From positions 1,240,001 through 1,304,000 of the forward strand of contig CP145413.1 in the NCBI GenBank assembly GCA_036867785.1: a stretch of DNA of 64,000 nucleotides. The letters are read 5' to 3'. This document shows positions 12,737 to 37,395 of this stretch, in pieces. Every line of letters begins with the position of its first letter. Position 1 is the stretch's first letter. This stretch comes from Plasmodiophora brassicae (taxonomy: Eukaryota). A model generated the notes under the pieces. The model had not been told where the DNA came from. It did not search any database and saw only the letters and a list, made by a program, of their open reading frames with translations. A program made the translations under genes and the position numbers.

Positions 12737-14478
<1,742 letters not shown>

Positions 14479-18577: not shown

Positions 18578-21500
18578 TCACTCCCAAGTGAAGCGGATGG
18601 TCGGATTGCCGGGCGCGGCTCTGCCGGTATCATCGAAGGTCACGGCGACTGGGTTAGTCAGGTGAATACCGTGGATCATCATGGAAATATTCTGCTCCAG
18701 GAGCTGACGCTCGTCGAAAGGCATTTCGGTCGCAAGAGCTTGACGCCCTGCAAAGTCGTTAGCACGAACCAATGCAATACCATAACTGGTTGACCCACCT
18801 TTGGATTTCACTTCATCAACAACACCGATAGCGAACTTTGTTGCACGCTTGAGGTTTGCCTTCAGTTCAGGATCGCGAGTAAACACGTCCTTGATATCCC
18901 TGGAAACGCGGCCCAAGTCAACCGGTTTGGACGGATCCTAGGCTACTTCAGCACACACGAGAAATGGTGTCAATCACCTGACGCCCTACCTCCTGATATA
19001 TCGCCTCGATCCGTTTCAGGACAGTTTTCTGCCACGCAGGATACTCACGAGCAACCTGCGGCACGATGCTGTTACCAACCCTTGTTGCAATCGACATTGG
19101 TGGTATGCTCACGTAGAATGTCAACGTAGACGGGTGAGTCGTAGGCGCGGGACCCTTCTTGGGTTGCATGGCTTCGCCAAATTTGACATTGACAGCACGG
19201 GTGACCTCCTGCAGGTACTTGGCAATTGCGGAAACCTCCAAGTCCACCTCGTCTGCCGTTGGCCACGGTGCATCGATGATCTTGTATGGCGAACACATCG
19301 TCAGCATCACCCACTCTACAAATCTCATGGCATACCATTCCAGAGTGCCCAGCGATGCGCCAGATCTCTTCAGCCGTGTGCGGGCAAATAGGCGCAATCA
19401 GCAACGCAAAGACGTCAACGTACCGACGAAGCAAGTCGCTGTTCATCTTCGACGCATCTTCACCGAAGCTGGCGCGGTACAGGTCACGAGCGTTCAGTAG
19501 ATCGAAGAAACCGTGCTAAATAGAATGCGACGTTAGATTCGACCGATGTGGCCTCCAGTTGAACCACCTTAAGCGCAACGCGGAAATGCATCCGAGCAAA
19601 AGCCTTGTCGGCCGCATGTATGCACTCGTTGATGCTGTAACAACCCCATGAGCAGAAGCGATCGCGAAACTCATTCACCTTTACCGGTTATTGAAAATCT
19701 TGTCAACCAGCGAGAACTCCCTTCGAGTCGCCGGCTCAGCGTTGATGCGATCAAACGTCTCCTGGATCCAGTCAAGCTCCTTTGTGAGCTTCAGAATCGC
19801 GCTGTCACCAGTGTGCACAAGCGAGACGTTGGCGTCATCCAGCGTGTCACCAGCATCAGCAAGAGCGAGTCTACACGATGTATCAGAAGAGTATACCAGA
19901 CGCATCCGAACGAAAAGCCATTACCGAGTTGGATCTGTACCGTACTGCTTGCAGGCGTCGACCATGGTGATGAAGTTGCCAGTCGACTTGGACATCTTTT
20001 CATCGTTCAGCATGGCGTGCCCGTTCGTGTAAAACGAACGCGGCCAGAGCGCAGGCTCAGACTTCCACATCGCCGCATGGTTGTACAATGACATCGTCAG
20101 GTGGTTGCCGATGAGGTCCTTGCCAGAGCATCGCAGGTCGACCGGGTAGAAGTAACGGAACTCCCTGCGCATACGATGCAGGACATCGACAGAGATATCG
20201 CATTCCGGAGGGATCCCAGCGTCTTCGTTCTCGGATTTGAAGATGTAATCGAAGACGGCATCGGTCAGCTGTTCGGGACGAACGACCGTGGCAGGCGTCT
20301 GGCTCCCGTTGAGGACTCCATGCTGAAGGATGTGCGCAATCGTATAGTACGCCATATAGATCGTCGAATCACTCAGCGACTCGATCACGAATTTGGGATC
20401 GAACGGCAGCGGTGTACCCAAGCCGAACGAACGAGAGCATGCCCACTCCTTGAGCCAGTTCACAACGTGGATGAACTGCTCCTTCGCGATATCATTGTAC
20501 GTTTCCAAACGCTCTCGGACATGCTTCTCAACGTCCTTGCGCCAGTTCTCCTCGCCGTACTCTTCGAACCACTGGTCCGTCTTGGCAACAACGCACTCGT
20601 TCCCAGAACGGGCAATGACTTCACGTTCAGGTTCACTAGAACATACGTAATTCAGCGAAGAGCAGGATGTGTGCGCGTATATGCGGATCGCACGAGTATG
20701 AGAACGCCTGGCCCTTGCTGATCATGTCGGCTTTCACGATCGGCTTGGCAATTTCAACGGGCTGTCCAGCACACATGCCAACGAGCATTGTACCCTCGTA
20801 GAATCCTGATCGAATGCAGTGAGGTTAACCGGAACGAAGAGACCGTACAGCGCCTCATACCTTGCTTGTAGACCTCGAGTTTCGCCTCAGCAAGCTTCTT
20901 GCTGTCGTACTGGTTCGCAATCTTCATCTTTTCGCACATGAACTTTGCAGCCCGGTCGCCAAGGGATGGCGTTCGAATGATGGCCGGGGCTTCAAGCGAA
21001 ACCATCTGTGATACGATTAAATATGGAGTTGAGATCGTAGCATAACAACGATGGCAAGCAGACCTCCAGCGTTACGTGATACTTCACGCGGAACGCTTCG
21101 TCCTTGCGAAGATCCTCGAGGGCAGTGTAGTCGTCGGGACTGTCCGAAGGAACCGAAGTAACGATGCCGGTGCCTGGATCGAATCGATTAGCACAGTCCC
21201 AACGACGACTAGGGGCTGGTCGGCACTGCACCCTTGTTCATTTTGATCGTGAGAAGGGGCAGCATGTAAATAACGTCGTGGATGGCGTTAGGAGCCTTGA
21301 CAGCCGCTCCAAGCAGGTCCCAGCCCTTGAGAACGCACAGCGTCTCCACTTTGCCGAACGGCGTCGGCAACAGTTCCTGGTAACTCATGTTCGCGGCCGC
21401 ACGAGCACTGCAGACCCAGATCTCGCTGTTCGGCCCACGAATGCAACTATAGTCACCATGTGGCAGCACCCAGGCATTTGTCTAAACAAAGCAACGTTTA

Positions 21501-22736
21501 GGAAGGCCAGAACGTCCACTACACGTATCCCGGTGCTGACCTGGCCGTACATGGTCTCTGGACGGAGAGTCGCACAGAGAAGGAATACACCGGAATGCGA
21601 CGGCTCGTCGACAAACGACTGAAGCGCAGGTGGCGGCTTCGACACCAAACGCAATTTGATCGCAGTGTACTCTTGCGGGACAACTCCCTCGCCAGAGGCA
21701 CGATCATGGTCGGCGCACGGCTGGTTTTCGTTCGGCGAGAAGATCGACAGGCGCTTGCCGAACATGATCTTGCCGAGCCGTTTCAGCGTGTTGAATTGCC
21801 AGCGAATAAACGCGTCAAAGTACGGGTTCACATCTACGGTGATCATGAGGACGCCGACACCAGGCTATTGTCACAACCGCGTCTTACTCGTTGTGATAAA
21901 CGAACGTCGGAAGTCGGCCTTGATGCCGAAACGTTTCAGGTGCTCGATGGCAATCGGCGGGAAGTGAGCGAGCCAGGTTTTCGGGTCGGCGAATGATGCG
22001 ATCATTTCCGGCGGGACGCCAATCTCCTCCATGATTTGCCACTGCAACGGACATATTACTGAACCGCTGAGGACGTAACGCAGACGACACCGACCTGATA
22101 CCGGTTCTTGGAGGACTTCTTCGACAGCTTGCCCTTCTTCTTCGGGGCGCTCGCTGCGACTTCAGGGGCGGCGATAGCGTCTTCGGAAGCATCATCGCCA
22201 TCATCGGTTGGGAACTCAGGCGGGTTCCCGAAGGCTTCGATTTCGCGGCGAAGCTTCTCTGCGCAGGCGGCGATCGGCATGCCTGTGCAGTGGAAACCGA
22301 ACGGAAACAGGACACGACGACCCTTCATGCGCTGTACGGGTGTCAACGGCAACGTTCCGAAACGTGGACGCGATGAAAGAACCTGGTAGCCGGCTGCGAA
22401 TTCGGCTTTGGACAACGAGAACGCATGACCCAGGTGAAGAATGCCGTTCATGTCTGTAACAAGGGTGTGTTTCAGTGGTAAGCCATACCAGGGGGGAATA
22501 GTGACATATTACGTACATGGGAACGGGAACGTCACCATGAATTTCTCCTGAAGAGGATCACCAGGCTCTGGGGCGTCCACCTCGAACGACTTGTTCTGCT
22601 CCCATTTCTCCTGCGCGATCTTTTCTAACGCGATCAAGCGGTCGCGCCGATCGAAGCTCTGAACGGGCATGTCAGAATACGTCGGCCTGGGCACCTGTTC
22701 CCATTCCCCCCGCAGCACCTGCTTCTCTTCCGTCAT
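18578..22736 (-). CDS. LARS1: Cytoplasmic leucyl-tRNA synthetase
   Basis: FPFP(Y)MNGILHLGH (HIGH motif), [48 protein letters not shown] and KMSKS. Confidence 0.96.
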
Positions 22737-22883
22737 CGCCGCGTTTGCACCACGACCGTGTCAGTCTGCAGCCGGCGTTAACTCCGGACCGGACTCCGTG
22801 GGGCGCCGCGTCCCCTGTCCACTGGTGCTATTTTTGCGCTGTCCCAAGTCGGGGTGTCGTGAGCAGGTGTGGTCGTGGCCGGC

Positions 22884-23353
22884 ATTATCGCGATTCCAAC
22901 GCTCTATGTACTTGGCCGGGAGCGCAGGGCTAACAGCCACATTCTGTCGTTGACCCCGAATTGGGAGCCGGTTTTCGTTGAGAACCTGCGCAACGCTCGG
23001 CGGGTCGCTCTCGATGACGGGAGCAGTTGATCTATCTCGCGGAGCGCGGCACGCCTCCAAGCCCGGCGTTCGAGCAATTGGGGCAGTTGCTGCAAGCGCA
23101 TGTGCCTCATTTGGCACATACGATGATCTCGTTGCTGCACCAGGTCGTTTTAAGGCGACTAGGCAACGCGCCACGTCGCTATATTCAGCAAGCGATCTGT
23201 CAGCAGCCTGTCTGCGGCGGGCACCTGCCATCGAGAGCGATCCGCCGAGCGTTGCGCAGGTTCTCAATGAAGATCGGCTCCCACTTCGGTGTCAACGACA
23301 GTATGTGGCTGTTAGCCGCGCCCGGGCAAGTAGAGCTTTGGAATCGCGATAAT
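22884..23353. repeat. Long imperfect inverted repeat (fold-back, ~470 nt)
   Basis: 22884-23024 is the reverse complement of 23221-23353, with a perfect 26-bp core (22978-23003/23242-23267) and a central mini-hairpin atgtgcc-tcattt-ggcacat at 23100-23119. Confidence 0.92.
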
Positions 23354-23520
23354 ACAATTCCGCGTTCTTGAGTGTCTTGTGGCGCGCCGCTCTGTAGACC
23401 AGGTCGACGTGCAACTGGCTTGTGCCAGGCTTGTACTTCCCGTGCTGTTCGGCGCAGAACGCGAAACGACGACTGGCGCGGACGTTCCTGGGAATGTGCA
23501 ACGAAACAATGCGCCGTTTT
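23221..23520 (-). mobile_element. Degenerate tyrosine-recombinase-like coding fragment (possible YR-element relic)
   Basis: Frameshifted translation KTAHCF..DLVYRAARHKTLKNAELYYRDS resembles the C-terminal His...Tyr catalytic region of tyrosine recombinases. Based on remembered motifs only. Confidence 0.35.
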
Positions 23521-23589
23521 ACTGCGGCGTTACTCGTACGTCGGAATGTGGCACGGGGGTAGCATCGACAGGTTCATCGTCATTTTTGG

Positions 23590-24183
23590 ATGCTGCTGGT
23601 TGTGCTCCTCGCCGCTGTCGTTTGGGTTGTCGTGGCGGTGTCGTGGAGCCGCAGGCCGCGCCACCGGGACGATGCGGGGACGATCGTGACGCTGGCCGTG
23701 CTGGGGTCCGGTGGGCACACGTCCGAGTTGCTGACGGTGATGAAGGGTATGGACCGGGGCCGGTACCGCCCTCTGCATTACGTCGTCGCGGATACGGACC
23801 GGACCAGCCAGGGCCGTGTCCTCGATCAGGACGCGGTCGTGCATCTCCTGCCTCGCAGTCGCCATGTTGGGCAGTCGTTCCTGAGCGCCGTTCCCACGAC
23901 ACTGGTCGCTATACTCGCGGCGATCCGCCTCGTGCTCTCGGTTCGACCGGAACTGGTACTTTGCAATGGGCCCGGGACATGCGTTCCAATCTGCATTGCA
24001 GCGGTCGCCTCGCGCCTGCTTGGTCGTTCCTGTCATATCGTGTTCATCGAGAGCTTCTGTCGCGTCCGGACCCTGTCCCTATCCGGGCGTATCATGTATC
24101 ACGTCGCAGCGTCGTTCTACGTCCAATGGCCGACACTGCAGGCACGATATCCTCGTGCGAAATACATCGGCTTGCTGTGCTGA
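23590..24183 (+). CDS. ALG14: UDP-GlcNAc transferase subunit ALG14
   Basis: N-terminal TM, VLGSGGHTSE, RSRHVGQS, LCNGPGTCVP, FIESFCRVRTLSLSG and VQWP. Confidence 0.95.
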   Translation: MLLVVLLAAVVWVVVAVSWSRRPRHRDDAGTIVTLAVLGSGGHTSELLTVMKGMDRGRYRPLHYVVADTDRTSQGRVLDQDAVVHLLPRSRHVGQSFLSAVPTTLVAILAAIRLVLSVRPELVLCNGPGTCVPICIAAVASRLLGRSCHIVFIESFCRVRTLSLSGRIMYHVAASFYVQWPTLQARYPRAKYIGLLC

Positions 24184-24281
24184 TCGCCGTCCGTCGGCTG
24201 CCAAGATATCTGGCGCCGATCGCCCCGACCCGTACGCTCGTCGATCGATCTCTTGGAGAATCCCCAGGAGTCGTATGCAGT

Positions 24282-27200
24282 ATGGACGACGAGCATGACG
24301 AGGCGCTGAACGACGGCGAAGACGCTGTCGCGCCCGAAGAGTCAGCTCCCGTTGTTGCACCTGGGCAGAAGTCGTCGTTTGCGTCCAAGATCTCCATCGA
24401 CGCCTTATGCTCCTATGTGCCCGCATCCATCATCCGGTTCTTGCAGGAGAACGCGAGCAGCGACAAATCGCACATGGTTGCTCCGTTTAGACACAGTTAC
24501 GAGACGGTCGTGCTGTTCGCCGACGTCTCCGGCTTCACCGACCTCAGCGAGCGCCTCGCGATGAAGGGTCGTGAGGGTTCCGAACAGCTCGCCAAGCACC
24601 TGAACTCGTATTTCGAGCAGTTAGTTCGCGTCATCGCTAGCCAGGGCGGCGACGTCTTCAAGTTCGCCGGCGACGCCTTGCTTGTCCTGTGGCCACCCAG
24701 CGACGACGATCTGTGTACTGTGACGCGGCGAGCGGTGCAGAGTGCGCTGGAGATCCAGCGGAAGATGCACAGTGCCAAACTGCAGGAAGACGTCGTCCTG
24801 AGCGTTAAGCTGGGCATCGGCGTCGGGACATGCTCCATTGTGCATGTCGGAGGCGTTCTTTCCCGAATGGAATACCTTGCCACCGGATCGCCGCTGATCC
24901 AGGCGTTCGCGTCTGAGCACAAGGCCGTTGCCGGCCAGGTCGTGTGCTCGCCAGAGGCGTGGCACATCATCAAGGATCATTTCGCCGCGCAGATCATTCC
25001 GTCGGGCCACGCGTTCATCGACCGTTGCTCCGACCGCCTGCGCAAGGTCGGCATCGTCAAGACGGCGAACCTTGACATCATTAACGACGTCCACCTGATT
25101 GAGTCCATCTCGAACTATGTCCCGGGCGCCGTCCTACCGTTCCTGAATGCCAGCGAAGAACGCTGGGCCTCTGAGCTGCGCCATGTTGCGGTCATATTCG
25201 CCAACCTCGGGTTCACGGAAGCCCAGCTTGCCAAGATCGCTAGCGAGGAGACGACGAATGACCTGGACCGCGTCCAATCCGTCATCTTCTCCGTTCAAAC
25301 GGCGATCTACCAGTACGAGGGATCGGTGAACAAGTTCCTGCTGGACGATAAGGGTTCGACTCTGCTGGCCGTGTTCGGCCTGCCGCCTGTCGCCCACGAG
25401 GACGACTCGGCCAGAGCGATTCTGGCCTCGCTCGTCATCTGCAACCAGCTGTCCAAACTGGGCGTCGTCCCGGCGATCGGAATCACGACTGGGACGGCCT
25501 TCTGTGGCGTGGTCGGCAGCCGCTCCCGTCGCGAGTATTCCGTCCTCGGCGATGTCGTCAACTTGTCAGCGCGCCTCATGCAGTACGCCAAGACGCAAGG
25601 CGGGGGCGTCCTGGTCGACCACACCACGCAGTACTCGGCCCGCGATTGCATCGCGTTCGAAGGGCTGACGAGCATCATGGTCAAGGGCAAGAAGGACTTC
25701 GTGAAAGTGTTCTCGCCCATCGCGTCCAGCGTTGCGCCACATGGGATCTGGAACCAGCACAGGAACGACAAGGCGTCGACGGTGGCACGTGCGGCCACCA
25801 TTGTGCATTCGCAGCACAACCCGCATGCCGAACTGTCGCGAACGTTGGCCGGTGGCAGTACGACGCCATTGTCCCCGGCGACGACCAGCCCGACGTCGAC
25901 CGTCCCGGTGGATTGCACATCGATGACGTTGCCCCAGATCCCATCCCTGTCGAACCTGTGGGAAAAGTTCCCTCCCAGGGACGCCGGCGAGGTCAGCACC
26001 ATCACGGTCGAACGGACCATCAACACGGGCGATTGGGGCCCACCGAAATCCGACGATAGTCTTCGTCTCGGGTCGTCTGGTGCTGCTGACGTCGATGTTG
26101 GCGCATCCATGACGCCTGCTGGAGGCGTCACGGCGCCGGTGGACACTTCTAGTGGCTTGCCGTCCAGTGATCCAACTGCTGTTAGTGTTGGCAGAGGGGC
26201 CGGGAACGTCCACCGAGGAGGACCAGGGGACGACCCGCCTGCTCCAACAGTGGATGACGCGGCCTGGCTGGAGCACACGAAGACGTGGATCGAGGACGAT
26301 GACGATATGCATTTCGAGGCGCCGACCCCCATCTTCCCGGCAGCGGTGCCCGCGTCGCCTCAGACGCCGATGAGCGAATCCGAAATGTGGTCTCGTACCA
26401 TGGACCGTGTCGCGGCCAACGCCCCGCTCCTGTCCGTCCTGCCGCAGTCGCGACTGAACACCTCGTCGTTCTCATCGCAGCGTACCCTGGGGTCGTCGTC
26501 CGAGAACGCGTCGCAGGACGAATCGACGTCCCCGTGGGAAGACGGAGCGTCCAGCGATTACCGGCTTCGAAGTTCGGATTCGCATCCTCCGGCACCTCAG
26601 TTCGCGGCGGATGCACCACACCCGTATAAGACGGCCAGGTTCCAGCTCCAGGACCGGGGGTACATCACGCTGGACGTCACTCGATTGCAGACGGTCCTGC
26701 AGGTCAAGGAGCGTTTGTTCGAGAGCCTACATCGCAAGCACTTTGTGGCGCCGAACGCGAACATGGACCAGTACGCGTTGCACATTGGCGACCGAAACGC
26801 GTTGCTTCAGAACGAGAACGTGACGCTGGCGTTGCTGCCTCGCGTAATCAGCAACATGCCCGGGCCGATGCTCGACATCGTCCTGACACGCAAGGCCGAC
26901 TTCGACGAGCACCTGCCTGGGCAGGACGGTGTGAGCGCCGCTGACGTCGGAATGGCCATCTCCAAGGCGATGCAGAGCCTGATTCGGACGCGCGACCGCG
27001 CGACCATCATTCTGGAGGGCGAGGCGGGCTATGGAAAATCGCGCCTCCTGTCCCAGGTGGTTCGCGAAGCGCCCGCATACGTCCTGTTCCGGGCGGCGAA
27101 CCCGCTCGAATCGAAGACGCCTCTCGGTATCTGGCGCGAGTTCTTCATGCGCCTGATCGACATGGAGATCGCGAACAAATCCTTCGACCACCCTGCAGAA

Positions 27201-30200
27201 CCCGTGCTGATGCGCAAGTGCTTCGTCATGAAATCGCTGGCGTCGTTGCCCGGTTACTCAGCCATTGCCGGCGTTCTTAACGAGGTCCTCCCGCTCGAGT
27301 TGGACGAAACGGAGGTAACAGCGTCGATGCCGTTTCTGGAACGGTTATCCAACTGCATCGTCATCATGCTGGCGCTGCTGCGGGTCTTCGTCAAGCGCAT
27401 CGGATCGACCATCATCATCATCGACGATGCGCTCCTGATGGATAAGCTCAGCTGGGGGTTCGCTCTTCGCGTCAGCTGCGATTTCACCAACGTCCTGTTG
27501 ATTCTGGGGACGCGCCCTGTTAACAAGAGCAACCTGGGCGCCTTCGACCTGGAGGTCCCCATGGATTACCTCGAGTTGCTGTCCCAGAAGACCACGTCGC
27601 GGTACGTTCTTCGCGCGCTGACCAACGAAGAGATTTACAACATTGGCGTGGAGACGCTCGGCGTGTCCAAACTGCCAAACACACTGGCCATCATCCTGCT
27701 CCAGCGATCGCACGGCAACCCGTTGGTCTGCAAGGAGCTTCTGTACTCGCTTCGCAAGAACGAGCTCATCGAGATCCGGACGGAGAAGAGCGGCAAGGTG
27801 TGCACGCTGTCGGACAAGTTCACCGACCTGTCGATCGTGCCTGTGCCGATCTGCCTGCAGAATATCCTCGGCTGCCGGATCGACCGGCTGGGGCACATCC
27901 ACGAGATCGCTCTGAAGGTCGCCAGCGTCATTGGCACCGAATTCCAGATGGACCTGCTGATGAAGACGTACCCGATCCTGGAACACGTGCCCAGCCTGCC
28001 GGACGTCATTGCCGATCTGTGCCAGCTGAACGTCTTCTGTGCCACGCATGTGTCGGCCGACGCCAACCCATCGCAGAACGTGTACCGGTTCGTCGACGGG
28101 TTCATGCGTGACGTGGCGCTGTCCAGGCTGATCGTCAGCCAGAAGCAATTGCTGATGGCGCGCATCAACGAGGCCAAGACGCGCAACACGCGCTTGACGA
28201 AACCGACCGATTTCCAGGTGCAAGGGTCCGTCAAGTTCAGCGGGTTCCTGCACATACGCAAGGCGCTGGACGCATCGAACGTCAGCTCGACGATGCGCAT
28301 GCGCATGGGCACCTGGAAGAAGCGCTGGGTCGTCCTGCACGAGAACAGCGTGTCGCTGTACTACCACCCGACGCACCCGCGCGTCCTGGGCGTCATCTTC
28401 CTGGACAGTGCCAGCGTGTCGATGCTGACCGATTCGTCGATCGGCCGCGACTACACGATCCAGATCCAGGCGCAGTACTGGATGAAGAAGGGCGTCACGC
28501 ACGACAGCAAGCGCCTGTTCTACATGGCGGCCGCCACCCTCGAGGACGCTCGCGTCTGGTCGTACAAGATCGCCGTCACCATCGAGAAGCAGCTGTCCGT
28601 TCGCGAGCGGCACGCCATTCAAGCGTCGTTGGCGTCCGACTCGCAGCGTGACACGACTGACCTCTGGACGCCCGAGTTTTCCCGAGGGCCACCTTCGCAG
28701 GCCTCGTCAGTATCAGCCGACGCGTCGTCGCAGTCCCCGCTCGTGCGCATGACGTCCCATTCGGTCCTGTTCAACGAGCGGAGCACGATGGAACGGACGG
28801 CGTCGTCGTCGAGCACGCCCTTGCTACCGCCAGGCGATGGGAGCACGGCCGCGCACACGTTCCGTTCCAGCCTGGCGAACTCGGTCCAGTACCTGTCGCG
28901 ACGCTTGAAATCGTCCAGCAGCGGGTCGATGTCCCGGCGGTCGATGTCGGCCATGAAGATGAACGGGCGCGTCAACAGCGCCGACATGGACCGGTCGGTA
29001 TCGGTGAACTCGTCGATCAGCGAGGTCGGCCAGCAGCGCGTGCCATGGCGCCCGACGCTCGACCTGGACCTGCTGCCCCTGGCGTCCGACCTGAAATCCG
29101 CTGTCAAGGCCTGGCTCTACCAGGGCGGTTCCTTCGTCACCACCGACGACAACAAGGGCGACGACGGCCTGCTGCGCCCGATCCTCAGCGACTCGGCGAT
29201 CAACAAGTCGGGCATAATGGAGGTGCTGGATCATCAGCTGACGGTGCCGCCTGGGGAAGACCCGAGATGGCGACGTCGCTGGCTGGCGCTCACGTCCGAC
29301 TCGCTCGTCATCACCGCTTCGCAGTTCGACGACGACGTCATGTTCGCGCTCAGCATCAGCCGGATCCGTCATCAGAAGGCGACCGAGAGGCTGACGTTCC
29401 ACGTGGAGTCCGACCTGGCGCTGGACGGCCCGACGCTCCTGTTCGGCAAGCCGACCGCGTTCTCGCTGCGGGCCGAGAACGATGCCACGTTCGCGTCCTG
29501 GTACGACCAGATCTCGCAGATGATCGACGAGGCGGTGCTGATGTCGGAGACGTCGCGTTCGGCGATCGCGCTGGACAACAGCGACCACGCCGGCACCGCC
29601 CTGTGCGACGTGGAAGACCGTTTCGCTGACTACCAGGTCTACGAGTCGAACTTGTTCGCCGACGCCGCCTCCCAGATCCTGCGGCGACTGAACGCGGAGG
29701 TCGGCGCCGACAACGCGAACGCGTCGTGGCCGGCGATTCGTCGCGAGCTGGACGCCCTGCAGAAGCTGATCGACACGTGCCGCAAGGTCGACCCGTCGTC
29801 GGCGCAAGCGCAGGCGCGACTGTCGCTGGGCGTATCCAAATTGGACAGCGGGTCGAGCATCGAACCGGAGACGAGCCTGTCGGCGACGCTGCAGAACGCG
29901 GACGCGGCCAACAGCACGATGGGCAGCGTGACGACGACGACGGCCGACCCGGAAATGTACCGGGACGGCGGCTGGCTCATCAAGATGATGGACGAGTGCG
30001 ACATCGATGATTCGACCAAGATGTGGCTGGCGCGTTGCTACACGCTGGACGGGCAGGAACAGCAACAGCGCCTGGCGTATGCGGTCGGCGGCGACCAGGC
30101 GATGCCCTCGCAGGGCAATGTGTCCGAGACGAGTTCGATCTGCATCAACGAGACCGACATGTCGTCCGAGGACGACAACATGTCGTACGACTATCGTCCG

Positions 30201-32042
30201 TCCATTGGCGGGGGCGACGGTGGCGATACGCCGCGCCGATGGGCGCTGGGTCGTTCCGTGTCGTTCGCCGAAGACGCTGTGTCCAGCGAAACGCTGTTCC
30301 AATGGGATTTCGACATCTTCTCGTACGAGAAGTCGCAGCTCAGCGGCGTCATCGCCCGGCTGTTCGAGGGCATGGACTTTGTCAACACGTTCCACGTCGA
30401 CCCGAAGGCCCTGTCGTCGTTCGTGTCCACTGTCAGCGAATCGTACCTGGACAACCCGTACCACAACCTGTTCCATTCCGTGGACACGTCGCAGACCGTC
30501 TGCTGTCTGCTGAAGACGTTCCACGCCAACGCGTACCTGACCAGCCTGGAGATGTTCGCCCTGCTGATCGCCGCCGCCTGCCACGACGTCGGCCACCCCG
30601 GCCTGAGCAACACGTACCAGGTGAACGCGTCGACCAAGCTGGCCCTGCTGTACAACGACCAGTCCGTCCTCGAGCACCACCACTGCGCCATGACGTTCCA
30701 CATCCTGAAGCGCCCCGGGTGCAACATCCTCAGCGGGCTGACGGAGCCCGAGTACCGGTCGGCGCGCAAGATCATCATCTCGTCGATCCTGTCGACCGAC
30801 ATGACCTGCCACTTCTCGCTGAGCGAGAAGTTCTCCAACCTGCTGCTGCGCCGCTCCGAAGACAGCGCGCGATCGGGCGGGCGTGCCGGTCGCGACACGA
30901 TATCGCCTTCCACGAGCCCGCACGCGTCGATCCTGTCGCCGACAGCCCTGTGCCCGTCGGATCGCGAGACGGTCGCCAACATGCTGCTGCACTCCGCCGA
31001 CATCAGCAACCAGTGCAAGTCGTGGCCGGTGGCGAAGCGATGGTCGGACTGCATCCTGATCGAGCTGTTCCATCAAGGCGACGTCGAGCGGGAATCGAAC
31101 CTGGCCCTGTCGCCGAACTGCGATCGGCACACGACGGACCGGCTGCAATTCACGTTGAACTTCATCGACTTTGTCGTCGCGCCTCTGTTCGTCTCCCTGA
31201 CGCACCTGCTCCCCGCCTGCGTTGTCACCTGCAACTCCCTGCGGTACAACCGCCTGCGATGGGACGCCGTCCTGCTGCAGAACATCGCCCAGTCGAACAT
31301 GTCGCCGGAGAAGAAACGGGAGGAGGAGCTGCGGTGGCGCCGGCGGATGGCGTCGTTCGACGAGATCCTCATGTTCGAGGTCGCCCCGCCCGACAAGCCG
31401 GACGCCAGCAAGGCGAGGAAGAGCAGCATGCAGCTGTTCGAGTCGTTCGTCAAGGCGAACTCCAGTTCGGGCGCGCTGCTCGCGTCGACGCGGGCGCGCA
31501 GCTCGTCGCCCCCGATCAAGGAATCGGCGCTGGAGCGCACCGTCATGCACCCGATCCTCGAGACGAAGCACCACTACCGGAGCAAGTCTGGGTCGTACTC
31601 GCTGGTCGAGAGCGACACGACGACCACCGGGGACGCGCCGGACGCGTCCCCGCTCATGACGTCCGGGTGCTACCCGCCGGCCGATCTGGGCCCGCCGCCC
31701 GAGCCGCCGTCCACCGGCCTGCCCGCTGGGGACAGCTCCAGCTCCCTCGACGACCTGATGCTGTCGTCGATGCCGATTGCAGTGGACGCCAACCCGCGTC
31801 CTGCACTGGGCCTGCGGACCAGCGCCGAGTCCGGCATCGGGACGCCGCGCACGATGACGACGCCCGCCTCGGTGGCCGGCAGGACGCCGGCGAGCAGCGA
31901 TAAGAGCACGCCGTCCAGCATGCCGTCGTCGTCGGCGTCGTCGGCGAACCGGACGCGTATGCGCTCCAGTTTCCTCGGCCTGGCCCGGTTCTGGGAGCGG
32001 AGCAGCGCAGCGAAATCGTCGACCGATAGCGGCAGGACCTAG
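24282..32042 (+). CDS. Multidomain soluble-type adenylyl cyclase - STAND NTPase - 2xPH - class I phosphodiesterase (~2586 aa, single exon)
   Basis: C1: FADVSGFT, KFAGDALL. C2: NKFLLDDKG, EYSVLGDVVNLSARLM, VKGK. NTPase: GEAGYGKS, IIIIDDA, GNPL. PH domains with WKKRWVVL and WRRRWLAL. PDE: YHNLFH, HDVGHPG, LYNDQSVLEHHH, ADISN. Confidence 0.92.
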   Translation: MDDEHDEALNDGEDAVAPEESAPVVAPGQKSSFASKISIDALCSYVPASIIRFLQENASSDKSHMVAPFRHSYETVVLFADVSGFTDLSERLAMKGREGSEQLAKHLNSYFEQLVRVIASQGGDVFKFAGDALLVLWPPSDDDLCTVTRRAVQSALEIQRKMHSAKLQEDVVLSVKLGIGVGTCSIVHVGGVLSRMEYLATGSPLIQAFASEHKAVAGQVVCSPEAWHIIKDHFAAQIIPSGHAFIDRCSDRLRKVGIVKTANLDIINDVHLIESISNYVPGAVLPFLNASEERWASELRHVAVIFANLGFTEAQLAKIASEETTNDLDRVQSVIFSVQTAIYQYEGSVNKFLLDDKGSTLLAVFGLPPVAHEDDSARAILASLVICNQLSKLGVVPAIGITTGTAFCGVVGSRSRREYSVLGDVVNLSARLMQYAKTQGGGVLVDHTTQYSARDCIAFEGLTSIMVKGKKDFVKVFSPIASSVAPHGIWNQHRNDKASTVARAATIVHSQHNPHAELSRTLAGGSTTPLSPATTSPTSTVPVDCTSMTLPQIPSLSNLWEKFPPRDAGEVSTITVERTINTGDWGPPKSDDSLRLGSSGAADVDVGASMTPAGGVTAPVDTSSGLPSSDPTAVSVGRGAGNVHRGGPGDDPPAPTVDDAAWLEHTKTWIEDDDDMHFEAPTPIFPAAVPASPQTPMSESEMWSRTMDRVAANAPLLSVLPQSRLNTSSFSSQRTLGSSSENASQDESTSPWEDGASSDYRLRSSDSHPPAPQFAADAPHPYKTARFQLQDRGYITLDVTRLQTVLQVKERLFESLHRKHFVAPNANMDQYALHIGDRNALLQNENVTLALLPRVISNMPGPMLDIVLTRKADFDEHLPGQDGVSAADVGMAISKAMQSLIRTRDRATIILEGEAGYGKSRLLSQVVREAPAYVLFRAANPLESKTPLGIWREFFMRLIDMEIANKSFDHPAEPVLMRKCFVMKSLASLPGYSAIAGVLNEVLPLELDETEVTASMPFLERLSNCIVIMLALLRVFVKRIGSTIIIIDDALLMDKLSWGFALRVSCDFTNVLLILGTRPVNKSNLGAFDLEVPMDYLELLSQKTTSRYVLRALTNEEIYNIGVETLGVSKLPNTLAIILLQRSHGNPLVCKELLYSLRKNELIEIRTEKSGKVCTLSDKFTDLSIVPVPICLQNILGCRIDRLGHIHEIALKVASVIGTEFQMDLLMKTYPILEHVPSLPDVIADLCQLNVFCATHVSADANPSQNVYRFVDGFMRDVALSRLIVSQKQLLMARINEAKTRNTRLTKPTDFQVQGSVKFSGFLHIRKALDASNVSSTMRMRMGTWKKRWVVLHENSVSLYYHPTHPRVLGVIFLDSASVSMLTDSSIGRDYTIQIQAQYWMKKGVTHDSKRLFYMAAATLEDARVWSYKIAVTIEKQLSVRERHAIQASLASDSQRDTTDLWTPEFSRGPPSQASSVSADASSQSPLVRMTSHSVLFNERSTMERTASSSSTPLLPPGDGSTAAHTFRSSLANSVQYLSRRLKSSSSGSMSRRSMSAMKMNGRVNSADMDRSVSVNSSISEVGQQRVPWRPTLDLDLLPLASDLKSAVKAWLYQGGSFVTTDDNKGDDGLLRPILSDSAINKSGIMEVLDHQLTVPPGEDPRWRRRWLALTSDSLVITASQFDDDVMFALSISRIRHQKATERLTFHVESDLALDGPTLLFGKPTAFSLRAENDATFASWYDQISQMIDEAVLMSETSRSAIALDNSDHAGTALCDVEDRFADYQVYESNLFADAASQILRRLNAEVGADNANASWPAIRRELDALQKLIDTCRKVDPSSAQAQARLSLGVSKLDSGSSIEPETSLSATLQNADAANSTMGSVTTTTADPEMYRDGGWLIKMMDECDIDDSTKMWLARCYTLDGQEQQQRLAYAVGGDQAMPSQGNVSETSSICINETDMSSEDDNMSYDYRPSIGGGDGGDTPRRWALGRSVSFAEDAVSSETLFQWDFDIFSYEKSQLSGVIARLFEGMDFVNTFHVDPKALSSFVSTVSESYLDNPYHNLFHSVDTSQTVCCLLKTFHANAYLTSLEMFALLIAAACHDVGHPGLSNTYQVNASTKLALLYNDQSVLEHHHCAMTFHILKRPGCNILSGLTEPEYRSARKIIISSILSTDMTCHFSLSEKFSNLLLRRSEDSARSGGRAGRDTISPSTSPHASILSPTALCPSDRETVANMLLHSADISNQCKSWPVAKRWSDCILIELFHQGDVERESNLALSPNCDRHTTDRLQFTLNFIDFVVAPLFVSLTHLLPACVVTCNSLRYNRLRWDAVLLQNIAQSNMSPEKKREEELRWRRRMASFDEILMFEVAPPDKPDASKARKSSMQLFESFVKANSSSGALLASTRARSSSPPIKESALERTVMHPILETKHHYRSKSGSYSLVESDTTTTGDAPDASPLMTSGCYPPADLGPPPEPPSTGLPAGDSSSSLDDLMLSSMPIAVDANPRPALGLRTSAESGIGTPRTMTTPASVAGRTPASSDKSTPSSMPSSSASSANRTRMRSSFLGLARFWERSSAAKSSTDSGRT

Positions 32043-32128
32043 CAGCGCGCATGCACAAATAAACCTGCCACCCACCCTGTTTCGCCGCCAACCGTTTGTT
32101 GCTCGCCGGACAGATGTAGGGGCGCGTT

Positions 32129-32728
32129 TCAGACGCGTTCGGAGATCCAGATGGCGGCCCGGCACCCGGTCTTGATGACGGTCGACAGCAGCTGGTAGGC
32201 GGGCGCGCGCAGCGCGTCGTGCTCGATGCCGATGTCGCGATGCTCCATCTCCTCGTCCCGGTGCTTCGCGACCAGGTGCCGCAGGTCGTCCTCCTTGTCG
32301 AATGCCGGCTGCATCAGGTCGCGCAGCTGGTCGTTGTAATGGCTGGCGATGACCTCCTCGACGGCGACCGTGCAGGCCATGGCGGCCTCCTTGCCGAGCA
32401 GCGCCGTGCCGAACCCGAGCGCGTACCCAGCAGCGCCCCAGATCGGCAGCAGGGCGCTGGGGCGCGCACGCCGCTCGGGCATCCGACGCTCCAGCGCCGC
32501 CAGGTGCTCCCGCTCCTGCTCCTTCATCTGGCGCAGCGTCGCCGACAGCGCCGGGTCGCCGCCCCGGCCCAGCACCGCCATCTGCCCGTCGTAGATCCGG
32601 ATGGCGCCGTACTCCCCGGCATGGTCGACACGCAGCATGCGGTCGATCGTCGCCCGGCGCGCATCGCCCCGCGCGTACGCAGGCGCCGCCGCCGCCGTCT
32701 GCACCGACCTGCGCCCCTGCCGCCACAT
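32129..32728 (-). CDS. COQ7: 5-demethoxyubiquinone hydroxylase COQ7
   Basis: RVDHAGEYGA..IYDGQ, EREH, AMACTVAVEEVI..HYNDQ and DEEMEHRD di-iron motifs; Arg-rich presequence. Confidence 0.95.
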   Translation of the reverse strand: MWRQGRRSVQTAAAAPAYARGDARRATIDRMLRVDHAGEYGAIRIYDGQMAVLGRGGDPALSATLRQMKEQEREHLAALERRMPERRARPSALLPIWGAAGYALGFGTALLGKEAAMACTVAVEEVIASHYNDQLRDLMQPAFDKEDDLRHLVAKHRDEEMEHRDIGIEHDALRAPAYQLLSTVIKTGCRAAIWISERV

Positions 32729-32787
32729 CGCCGGACAGAGTCCCGCACCGAACCGACACGATATCAAAATGGACTCGGATAGGTGAC

Positions 32788-32815
32788 GGGGGGAGGGGGA
32801 GATGGGGGAGGGGGG
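32788..32815 (+). other. Potential G-quadruplex motif
   Basis: G6-A-G5-AGAT-G5-A-G6 between the malic enzyme stop and the COQ7 start. Confidence 0.55.
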
Positions 32816-32911
32816 CGTTCTAGTGTGAAAACCCCAGCTGCAGCTGCCGCGTCGTCGACCACGGCTTGTCTGCACGCACCGGGCAGTCGCGACTCGCGAC
32901 CCCGTCGCCAG

Positions 32912-35554
<2,643 letters not shown>

Positions 35555-35902
35555 CACCAACGCTGGTGACGGGCGCGCCTCGACCCCCGTCACGTTAGCA
35601 AAAACGCCGAGGTCGTCACAGACGGGCGACATCGGCCTGCATCAGATCTCACCCCGTCATGCAGCAGTCGTTCCCTGCGGGCGACGTCGCCTGCGACTGC
35701 AGCACGCCTCCGTGGGCATGCTCCCCCCGTCAAAGGGGACACATCGATGATGCGTTTGCAGTTAGGCCAGTGGGAGAGAACGCCGGGCGCTCTTTGACGC
35801 CAAGACCTCTTCGTAGCTTCATCGAGCGCGTCACAACGCGTCACAACGCGCCATGGCGCAGCGTCGCGTAGCCAGCGCCGATCGTGCAGGGAAACGCGTC
35901 GA

Positions 35903-36190
35903 AGTTCGGCCTGGCCAGGGTGCAGACGACCTTCCCCTGCCTGGGACGGGCTCAGGTCTACTTCATGGATCCTGACGCGCAGACCGATGGCCTGCATCGT
36001 CTCGTGGATGATGTGGAGCGCTTCGCGATCGAGGTCGGGGAAGATGGCGGCGCGGCGATCAGACGTCTGCGCGTCAGGATCCATAAAGTAGTTCTGAGCC
36101 GGTCGTCGAACGCTTGCAGGGGACCGATCCATTGGTTCAGCAGGTCGTTGACGCCGAACGTATATACGCCATCGCGCATGCTGGTCAGGG
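35903..36190. repeat. Fold-back hairpin with near-perfect 34-bp stem
   Basis: 35951-35984 pairs with 36065-36098, with a perfect 20-bp core atggatcctgacgcgcagac. Pairing extends outward (tcccctgc/gcagggga, gttcggc/gccgaac). Confidence 0.9.
35985..36190 (-). mobile_element. Degenerate Helitron Rep/helicase N-terminal fragment
   Basis: Frameshifted translation DGVYTFGVNDLLNQWIGPL / AQNYFMDPDAQ..RRAAIFPDLDREALHIIHETM resembles the Helitron pattern GxYTFxxxG...HxIGxL...AQxYxxD....R......LD. Based on remembered motifs. Confidence 0.55.
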
Positions 36191-36317
36191 GCCTGGCTGC
36201 ACAGTGCACCACCTGGACCTCACAAAGTTGGCAGGAGCGACCGCGGAAACTGCGTCTGCGCGGTCCCTCGCCGCTGTGCGTCAGACAGACGGCGCTGCAA
36301 CAACGGCGTGACGCGTG

Positions 36318-37395
36318 ATGTTAATGCAGCCGGTACGGCGCCGGTCGACCCGGTTGTCGGCGAAGTCAGTGGCGGTCCGCGGAGAGGCGCCGGTGGTGGT
36401 GAAGAACGAGGTGGTCGTGTCGAGGTATTTCAGCAGCGAGCCGGCGCCGCCGCCGCCGGGGCGGATGCCGAAAAGGTTCATGGAGCAGTGGAATGGGATC
36501 CTGTCGATGCGGGCGGCGCGCGATGCTGATGTTGACAAGTACGGGGCCGAGGCGCTGCCCGCACCGGATGTTGACCCGAAGACCATGCGGTACCATGCGT
36601 TGATTGCTGTGGGCGGCCGTGTGCTCCATTTGATACCCGGATGGGCCTGAGCATGAAACTTCGATTGCAGGTCATGCTGAGCAGCCAGACCAGGGATCCA
36701 GTAACGGCGGCGGCTATGAGGCGATTACAGTGCTGCCCAGGGGGCCTGACCGTCGACAGCATCAACGCGATGCCTGAGGAGCAGCTCAGAGGTATGTTCG
36801 CGCTGACGCAGGCACGGAGGGCTCTAACGGCGTTGAATCATGCCTCATGCAGATTTGATCTTTGGCGTGTCGTTCTACAACCGGAAAGCGCATTATATCA
36901 AGGAAGCCACTAGAATTCTGTCCGAACAATACGATTCCGACGTCCCGAACGACCTTGACCTGGTCTGCGCGTTACCGGGTGTCGGCCAGAAGATGGCCAA
37001 GATCGCGCTTCGCATTGGCTGGGGGAACATCTGTGGCATATCTGTCGACACACATGTTCATCGCGTGTGCAGGTACCGAGGGCCAGTAGGGTCGTGGACG
37101 CATAACAGGCTCTGACGCGATAACAGGCGGCTCGGTTGGACGACGCCGAAAGCGACGACGCCGGAAAAGACGGCGGCCGAGCTGGAGAGCTGGGTCCCGC
37201 GCGAACTGTGGGATCAAGTGAACCTCGTCGTCGTCGGCTTCGGGCAACAGGTCTGCAAAGCGCCGTACCCTCTTGTAGGTTCTGCCCCGCGCTCAATCAT
37301 GTCTGAAGATCATGATGATGACGTTCCCATAGTGTAGTACATGTGCAATCCGTGAAATTTGTCCAAAGAATGGTGTCGGGTCGCGGAGGCGATAG
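36318..37395 (+). CDS. NTHL1: Endonuclease III-like DNA glycosylase
   Basis: MLSSQTRD, FYNRKA, LPGVGQKMA (HhH), VDTHVHR, GFGQQVC and a spliced C-X6-C-X2-C-X5-C 4Fe-4S motif. Confidence 0.92.

Follow-up and report, generated by a model that had tools for sequence, protein, structure and literature searches.

The window analysed here is a stretch of 64,000 nucleotides of Plasmodiophora brassicae (contig CP145413.1, positions 1,240,001 to 1,304,000), which carries on its + strand an open reading frame (ORF) for one very large protein, P0002. The frame lies within a stop-to-stop interval at 23379–32042 of the window and, read from the ATG at 24282, encodes a product of 2586 residues (7761 nt including the stop), with no internal stop and no intron seen. 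In domain order, this product has first a tandem cyclase of the soluble adenylyl cyclase (sAC) type, then, after a disordered linker, a STAND-like NTPase, followed by two PH domains and finally a class I phosphodiesterase (PDE). The reading proposed here, to which a probability of about 0.72 is attached, is that the locus is an intron-less eukaryotic (protist) gene for a single cytosolic bifunctional cyclic-nucleotide enzyme of 2586 residues. As judged from alignments, its domains carry the catalytic residues of cyclase and PDE that are conserved throughout a family of related proteins. The features of the locus, in window coordinates, are:

23551–24281, + strand: leader (~650 nt) under the same RNA-like contigs as the ORF; contig starts at 23551–23635, in-frame ATG at 23979
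24282–32042, + strand: whole ORF, 2586 codons plus stop (P0002), from translation; single unspliced contigs (X1 record 4, X9 record 16) run across it
24480–24974, + strand: cyclase domain C1, sAC type (residues 67–231), from Pfam and PDB alignment; Asp kept at the D47 and D99 positions
25086–25688, + strand: cyclase domain C2 (residues 269–469), from PDB alignment; equivalents of K334, D339, N412 and R416 kept
25722–26621, + strand: linker rich in S/T/P/G/A/Q/N (residues 481–780; fraction 0.45–0.67 per 60 residues), with no BLAST match in the homologues
26628–26897, + strand: conserved module of ~90 residues (783–872), from alignment A3 of eight homologues; a beta-grasp fold is a lead only
26934–28181, + strand: STAND-like P-loop NTPase with helical part (residues 885–1300), from motifs, a sub-cutoff AAA_16 match and BLAST to ADCY10
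27018–27041, + strand: Walker A, GEAGYGKS (residue 913), by motif
27411–27428, + strand: Walker B, IIIIDD (residue 1044), by motif
27714–27722, + strand: GNP, the GxP motif (residue 1145), by motif
28233–28571, + strand: PH domain 1 (residues 1318–1430), WKKRW core; scored alone by Pfam, 41.5 bits against a cutoff of 25.1
29244–29525, + strand: PH domain 2 (residues 1655–1748), RWRRRW core; scored alone by Pfam, 23.6 bits against a cutoff of 25.1
29976–30056, + strand: motif CDIDDxTKxWLxxxYT (residues 1899–1925) just 5' of the PDE, kept in 11 of 13 aligned homologues
30285–31280, + strand: class I PDE catalytic domain (residues 2002–2333), from Pfam, PDB and AlphaFold; Thr2291 at 31152–31154
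31329–32039, + strand: C-terminal tail rich in S/T/P (residues 2350–2586), from composition; no recognised domain by Pfam

Scanned as a whole, the protein matches Guanylate_cyc in two stretches (E 2.6e-17, best at residues 75–231), PH in two stretches (E 4.6e-14, best at residues 1318–1430) and PDEase_I (residues 2060–2316, E 6.7e-79), with AAA_16 under its curated cutoff. A preliminary description of the locus had claimed one uninterrupted ORF of 7.76 kb uniting tandem cyclase, NTPase with a GNP motif, two PH domains and PDE in one chain, and both points are borne out, the frame being open over all 2586 codons and each domain having Pfam, PDB or motif evidence. The domain coordinates given there differ from the present ones by no more than a few tens of bases, apart from the start of the PDE, which was put at ~30300 and which Pfam places at 30459. 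It had also reported no transmembrane segment; a 19-residue Kyte–Doolittle scan, run with no dedicated transmembrane predictor, likewise finds no membrane-like segment outside the known domain cores, the hydropathy maximum of 2.11 lying inside a PDE helix.

The start codon at 24282 is provisional because a second in-frame ATG, 303 nt further 5' at 23979, falls within the contig-covered leader. The alignment consensus places the N-termini of homologues at around residue 40 of P0002, and the 301 in-frame codons 5' of 24282 contain no Pfam family and look non-coding. No Pfam family was found in the antisense ORFs across the locus either, and the long antisense ORFs, together with the upstream frame, look like by-products of the 61–66% G+C content.

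The unity of the frame was examined with contigs of four public runs from four studies (X1, X5, X9 and X12), aligned to positions 19000–37000 of the window. Contigs of these runs skip at least 14 GT..AG introns of 50–63 nt in the gene at 19.0–22.5 kb and, outside that gene, one intron at 36608–36671, so that spliced, RNA-derived sequence is present in all four. A single 8966-nt contig of X1 (23622–32587) spans the whole ORF with two differing letters and no gap, and a single 9144-nt contig of X9 (23635–32747) also crosses it without a gap, while X5 and X12 each provide one contig running from 24645/24648 past the stop, plus an overlapping 5' piece. Among the joints listed for the contigs of the four runs there is none inside the ORF, and every domain boundary is bridged gap-free. 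The contigs are thus consistent with one transcript across the whole frame, as the preliminary description had supposed. An artefact of gene model or assembly that joins two genes, or a frame divided between two transcripts, would be compatible with contigs that show no transcript ends and merge with the convergent COQ7 gene downstream, and with runs none of which is annotated as RNA; it is nevertheless very improbable, given 2586 stop-free codons that continue across poorly conserved linkers, the gap-free contigs over every domain boundary in four runs of four studies, and the same domain order in 20 other proteins, some of them ORFs flagged 'type:complete' in transcriptome assemblies. Since these complete-flagged ORFs of homologues hold the same domains in one chain, support for a single chain is independent of the contigs. 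Bins at 22606–23206 are uncovered in X1 and X12. At 31839 and 32533, contigs of X5, X9 and X12 depart from the window and run on with letters that occur nowhere in it; a branch in the assembly, a different locus or a variant might account for this.

The best solved-structure match of the N-terminal 470 residues is human sAC (4cm2_A, E 1.9e-42), in two stretches covering residues 67–230 and 269–469, as expected of two unlike domains, C1 and C2, that make up a pseudo-heterodimer within one chain. Cyclase residues are numbered here as in mouse-type ADCY10, verified on the PDB alignment, and were compared over 22 protist and three vertebrate rows. P0002 keeps D47, K95, D99, K144, K334, D339, N412 and R416, and these positions are kept in 19–22 of the 22 protist rows: N412 in all of them, D99, K334 and R416 in 21, D339 in 20 and D47 in 19, two of the three rows without D47 being N-terminally incomplete. 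In all 15 rows of the cyclase alignment, more than 100 columns do not vary. Asp47, Asp99, Lys334, Asn412 and Arg416 are taken here to have the catalytic and metal-binding roles assigned to them in known cyclases. At position 176, P0002 and 21 of the 22 protist rows have Phe (the other has a gap), whereas all three vertebrate rows have Arg. In human sAC this Arg presumably pairs with Lys95 as the bicarbonate site, a pair that is incomplete in P0002, where Lys95 is kept and Arg176 replaced. Because the catalytic residues are kept and position 176 is Phe, the cyclase is expected to be active and to lack bicarbonate sensing of the mammalian type; P0002 is probably not a bicarbonate sensor of that kind. 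The label 'sAC-type' of the preliminary description therefore holds as a statement of kinship to ADCY10, in the structural match and in the tree described below, and does not extend to position 176.

The cyclase would make a 3',5'-cyclic purine nucleotide. Lys and Asp are kept at the base-specifying positions K334 and D339, for which reason cAMP is the likelier product than cGMP; guanylyl cyclases have Glu and Cys at these positions. It is rather unlikely, given Lys at K334 in 21 and Asp at D339 in 20 of the 22 protist rows, that the enzyme handles cGMP or both nucleotides, as a fusion of guanylyl cyclase (GC) and cGMP-PDE. What speaks for such an enzyme is that the soluble guanylyl cyclase (sGC) of Dictyostelium has sAC topology yet makes cGMP, as described in the available passages of PMC8684759; that a 2026 survey, in the part accessible, names rhizarian soluble class III cyclases 'soluble GC' (PMC13466520); and that the PDE of P0002, considered below, lacks the Gln that reads the base and scores nearly equally against the cAMP-specific PDE4 and the cGMP-specific PDE9. 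The preliminary description had assumed cAMP outright, and on this point it is not followed, the Dictyostelium enzyme being a case of sAC topology with the other product.

In the NTPase, none of the 17 rows aligned departs from the G-x-GK of Walker A, a TRP-type 'R-P' or the Pro of GxP. AAA_16 is matched at residues 907–1058 (E 1.5e-3, 19.5–21.2 bits against a curated cutoff of 32.6), and BLAST finds the corresponding region of a vertebrate ADCY10 (P0030) at E 2e-18. A search with the region against 1.84 billion representatives gave 3793 matches at E<=1e-3, of which 218 reach E<=1e-30. Domain scans of the best 149 of these representatives found a tandem cyclase in front of the NTPase in 133 and a PDE in only two, or, counting P0006, a PDE in three of the best 150. 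The NTPase is of the common type seen in sAC and in bacteria, homologous to that of full-length sAC. It had no PDB match by sequence, and a search of the ESM Atlas with residues 780–2350 returned only AAA_16 clusters at 0.76–0.79, which is under the level that counts. For mammalian sAC, the available passages of PMC12802110 report that the tested nucleotides act no differently on the purified full-length enzyme than on its truncated form, and that no nucleotide regulator acting via the P-loop of the full-length protein was found.

Between the disordered linker and the NTPase, the conserved module at residues 783–872 is possibly a ubiquitin-like or Ras-binding-type beta-grasp domain, which the following matches offer as a lead only. 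The profile of alignment A3 obtained six matches in the PDB, none of them significant. Three of the six fall on ubiquitin-like domains with GTPases or adaptors as partners, namely the plexin-B2 RBD (E 0.15 and E 0.6) and the PI3K-alpha ABD (E 0.25). Among nine members of the module scanned with Pfam, PI3K_rbd was found in one (E 0.0095) and RBD in one (E 0.19). The segment of P0002 itself contained no Pfam family, and its best match in a single-sequence PDB search was at E 1.3.

The two PH domains have basic cores, WKKRW in the first and RWRRRW in the second, noted by eye. In the second, 9 of 13 homologues share the WKKxW core and the Trp of the C-terminal helix in alignment, and an AlphaFold model of residues 1630–2350 gives strands followed by a long helix, with a predicted local distance difference test (pLDDT) score of only 45–60. 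The motif that precedes the PDE was not matched to any known family, and its region is modelled as short helices with pLDDT of about 55–61.

The C-terminal catalytic domain has PDE4B as its best solved-structure match (E 9e-52) and is not nearer to any one metazoan PDE family, as shown by values of 9e-55 for PDE4 and 2e-50 for PDE9. In the same AlphaFold model the PDE is predicted with pLDDT of about 85–95, in contrast to the poorly modelled second PH domain and pre-PDE stretch; it superposes on PDE9 and PDE4 with template modelling (TM) scores of 0.8–0.9 by target length, and Foldseek identifies the all-helical PDE fold with PDE9 3dy8_A (E 7e-20, TM 0.88 by target length). Class I PDEs have eight metal-pocket residues, as listed in the accessible part of PMC5617230, and P0002 has every one of them (H2061, H2065, H2101, D2102, H2105, E2131, H2134 and D2240). 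They are invariant in 14 of 14 family rows, as are the clamp Phe, F2294, and about 30 further PDE columns, at an overall identity of 23–34%. To our knowledge, every characterised class I PDE has a purine-scanning Gln, described as 'invariant', three residues before the clamp Phe. In P0002 this position is occupied by Thr2291, an assignment that is firm because the stretch between the CD[KR]H anchor and the clamp Phe aligns to PDE4B without gaps, and in 25 of 25 family PDEs it is Ser, Thr, Ala or Asn and never Gln. The observation of the preliminary description that the metal-binding motifs of both enzymes look intact is borne out; the class I PDE site as a whole is only partly intact, since it lacks the purine-scanning Gln. 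A Gln relocated to seven residues before the clamp Phe, common in the family, was considered as a substitute and rejected: P0002 has Arg there and a Gln at minus 5, so that no substitute Gln is conserved.

Base binding by this PDE is probably unlike that in any class I PDE characterised so far, and with the Gln lost the domain may bind its substrate weakly or bind something else. The uniform loss of the Gln could also be taken, together with degenerate cyclase residues in two family members (P0017 and P0023), to mean that one of the two catalytic domains has turned regulatory, for instance that the Gln-less PDE acts as a cyclic-nucleotide sensor, or as a very weak hydrolase, feeding back on the cyclase. 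This is improbable in view of the invariance of metal pocket, clamp Phe and some 30 other PDE columns at such low overall identity, and of more than 100 cyclase columns in all 15 rows compared, a pattern expected of working active sites.

A whole-protein search, with domain order mapped by BLAST, found 73 other proteins besides P0002, 16 of which have the same order of cyclase, NTPase and PDE (the NTPase being recognised in 15 of them). Four more fused members (P0076, P0093, P0208 and P0351) bring the number to 20 besides P0002, which makes this a conserved family of at least 21 proteins. In four members scanned with Pfam, two cyclase domains, AAA_16 (no match in P0003), PH and PDE were found in all four, two of which add C2 and GYF domains. 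Fused members with named sources come from the chrysophyte Paraphysomonas (MMETSP transcripts) and the dinoflagellate Durusdinium trenchii. A cyclase and NTPase without PDE occur in one Paulinella transcript and in two oomycete proteins; the oomycete matches (Peronosclerospora P0018 and P0019) combine FYVE with the cyclase. Several long matches that appear to consist of a PDE only have their start inside the NTPase or inside cyclase domain C2 and are for this reason regarded as truncated models.

Accessory domains are swapped among the members: P0010 and P0351 have C2 and GYF, P0012 and P0016 have C2, P0005 and P0028 have a GNAT acetyltransferase, and P0018, P0019 and P0021 have FYVE where the others have the PDE. 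The part predicted to target lipid or membrane varies, and the core of cyclase and NTPase stays constant.

A tree of the tandem cyclase was built from 101 of 170 covering rows, namely every such row up to P0076 and, in file order, the first 45 such rows of the representatives. A single clade of 32 rows takes in each of the 19 rows that bear a PDE, with a support of 100 in the Shimodaira–Hasegawa-like approximate likelihood ratio test (SH-aLRT), and this clade is sister, with support 98, to the one holding animal ADCY10. Rows without a PDE are nested among the fused ones, and monophyly of the PDE-bearing rows is rejected by the approximately unbiased (AU) test (p 4.7e-5, 41 rows), so that either some lineages do without the fusion or a number of those rows come from truncated gene models. 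In the 12 proteins that were left once five partial or degenerate rows had been set aside, the pairwise identities of cyclase and PDE co-vary (r 0.874 over 66 pairs, matched by 1 permutation in 2000). From the one clade that holds all PDE-bearing rows, the co-varying identities and the loss of Gln common to all the PDEs, we infer that the fusion arose once, long ago, and that the PDE was later lost in places or is missing from truncated models; gains on several occasions are possible.

ADCY10 resembles P0002 in having an N-terminal C1–C2 pair, identical in its catalytic residues, with a P-loop STAND NTPase behind it and no membrane segment, but it lacks both PH domains and PDE and has Arg176 where P0002 has Phe. 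In vertebrate ADCY10 the NTPase follows close behind C2 (matches start from residues 483–527), whereas in P0002 a disordered linker of ~300 residues and the beta-grasp-like module lie between the two. Bacterial proteins of about 1350–1400 residues with a cyclase, STAND (AAA_16) and TPR layout share 29–35% identity with the NTPase over about 400 residues; these end in TPR repeats, P0002 in PH domains and PDE. PDE4 and PDE9 have the same fold, the eight metal-pocket residues and the clamp Phe, from which P0002 differs by Thr in place of Gln. The sGC of Dictyostelium was not among the sequence matches and is compared by description only: as the passages available describe it, it is a large protist cyclase of sAC topology with a C-terminal AAA-ATPase, like P0002, and unlike P0002 it has no fused PDE, its cGMP being broken down by separate PDEs. 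By analogy, it would offer the best functional counterpart for gating by a small GTPase.

Fusions of cyclase and PDE are known from other sources. The CAPE proteins of Marchantia and other streptophytes with motile sperm combine a class III cyclase and a class I PDE in one polypeptide of about 1250 residues, with the PDE N-terminal and the cyclase C-terminal according to the passages available (PMC8115329). P0002 has the reverse order and no membrane-like segment, in agreement with the distinction from CAPE drawn in the preliminary description, and its cyclase is a tandem of the sAC type, with the STAND NTPase and two PH domains in between. From Saprolegnia, Achlya and Thraustotheca the same passages name 'CAPE-like' proteins with adenylyl cyclase and PDE, whose layout they do not describe (PMC8115329); no such protein of these three genera was among the 74 whole-protein matches, and the Saprolegniales proteins may or may not be related to the P0002 family. 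In a further protist of the stramenopile–alveolate–rhizarian (SAR) group, the diatom Seminavis robusta, a pheromone-induced GC/PDE likewise unites cyclase and PDE in one protein (PMC4726125, in part); there, two transmembrane helices are predicted N-terminal of the catalytic domains and the predicted nucleotide is cGMP, whereas P0002 has no membrane-like segment. Neither CAPE nor the diatom protein is of the sAC type, and in the passages available for them no STAND NTPase or PH domain is mentioned. In the full-text literature searched, with most subscription journals and supplements outside it, neither a layout of sAC-type cyclase, NTPase, PH and PDE nor a class I PDE without the Gln was described. 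The preliminary description had suggested that the protein may be undescribed, which agrees with this literature as far as it goes; the architecture is not unique to this genome, being shared by 20 other proteins. Cyclase–PDE fusions being known, what P0002 adds is a real, conserved and uncharacterised family with two unexpected family-wide substitutions.

A number of observations weigh against the reading of P0002 as a single, working bifunctional enzyme. Two of its domains, AAA_16 and the second PH domain, fall under the Pfam curated cutoffs when scored alone. Contigs cannot prove a single mRNA; those over the ORF also continue into COQ7, and the listed runs carry no RNA annotation. The replacement of Arg176 by Phe departs from sAC, and some members have a degenerate cyclase: P0017 lacks D47, D99 and K334, and P0023 has Ala at R416. 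To these are added the consistent absence of the purine-scanning Gln, with its possible consequences for substrate binding, and the PDE-less rows nested among fused ones. The activity, lipid binding and localisation of the family members are, moreover, predictions from sequence.

If P0002 is such an enzyme, its tethered PDE would hydrolyse the cyclase product beside its source, and the signal would therefore be brief and local. The PH domains, through their basic cores, and perhaps the Ras-binding-like module would place or gate the enzyme at a membrane, and the NTPase together with the long Ser/Thr-rich linkers may set the balance of synthesis and breakdown. Recruitment by lipids, a switch through the NTPase and a role in zoospores, which the preliminary description had proposed, would belong to the same set of predictions. 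A more specific and distinctly speculative version is that of a gated pulse generator, in which a GTPase acting on the beta-grasp module and phosphoinositides acting on the PH domains would recruit the protein, the nucleotide state of the STAND domain would reciprocally open the cyclase and close the PDE, and the Gln-less PDE, of low affinity and unselective for the base, would act only on the high local product of its own cyclase. Reciprocal control of this kind operates in the bifunctional bacterial GGDEF-EAL and Rel enzymes. Were this version true, the PDEs of the family would form a class I subfamily with a new mode of substrate recognition.

In animal cells, cAMP nanodomains arise from scaffolded cyclases and PDEs; with both activities in one chain, P0002 would be a natural and minimal case in which to study signalling that is local and limits itself. 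The family also ties sAC to an output that might reveal the role of its STAND domain, for which the passages available of PMC12802110 give no known function yet, and its 25 natural class I PDEs without the 'invariant' Gln offer a direct test of the 'glutamine switch' idea. If the host is indeed a phytomyxid, one of the zoospore-forming plant parasites, the protein may bear on motility or infection signalling.

Other genes of the window were noted in passing. On the - strand at 19053–22517 lies the intron-rich gene already mentioned, with at least 14 GT..AG introns of 50–63 nt and a contig word depth several times that of the large ORF; its exon at 19921–20721 contains a KMSKS motif and by eye resembles a class I aminoacyl-tRNA synthetase, perhaps a putative leucyl-tRNA synthetase. 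The convergent COQ7 gene (ubiquinone biosynthesis; Pfam E 3e-67) occupies 32132–32875 on the - strand and ends about 90 nt past the stop of the large ORF. At 12740–14194, also on the - strand, a katanin p60-like AAA ATPase is encoded (AAA, AAA_lid_3 and Vps4_C), the best named homologue of which, from Spongospora subterranea, is 53% identical over 99% of the query. This one gene points to a phytomyxid rhizarian as the probable source of the window; an oomycete origin was considered and rejected, the oomycete matches of P0002 being FYVE–cyclase proteins that have no PDE. Finally, G+C content rises to 0.68–0.70 at 42000–48000, as against 0.49–0.67 elsewhere in the window; overlapping with this block are a La-domain gene (45901–47460, - strand) and ORFs that match no Pfam family.

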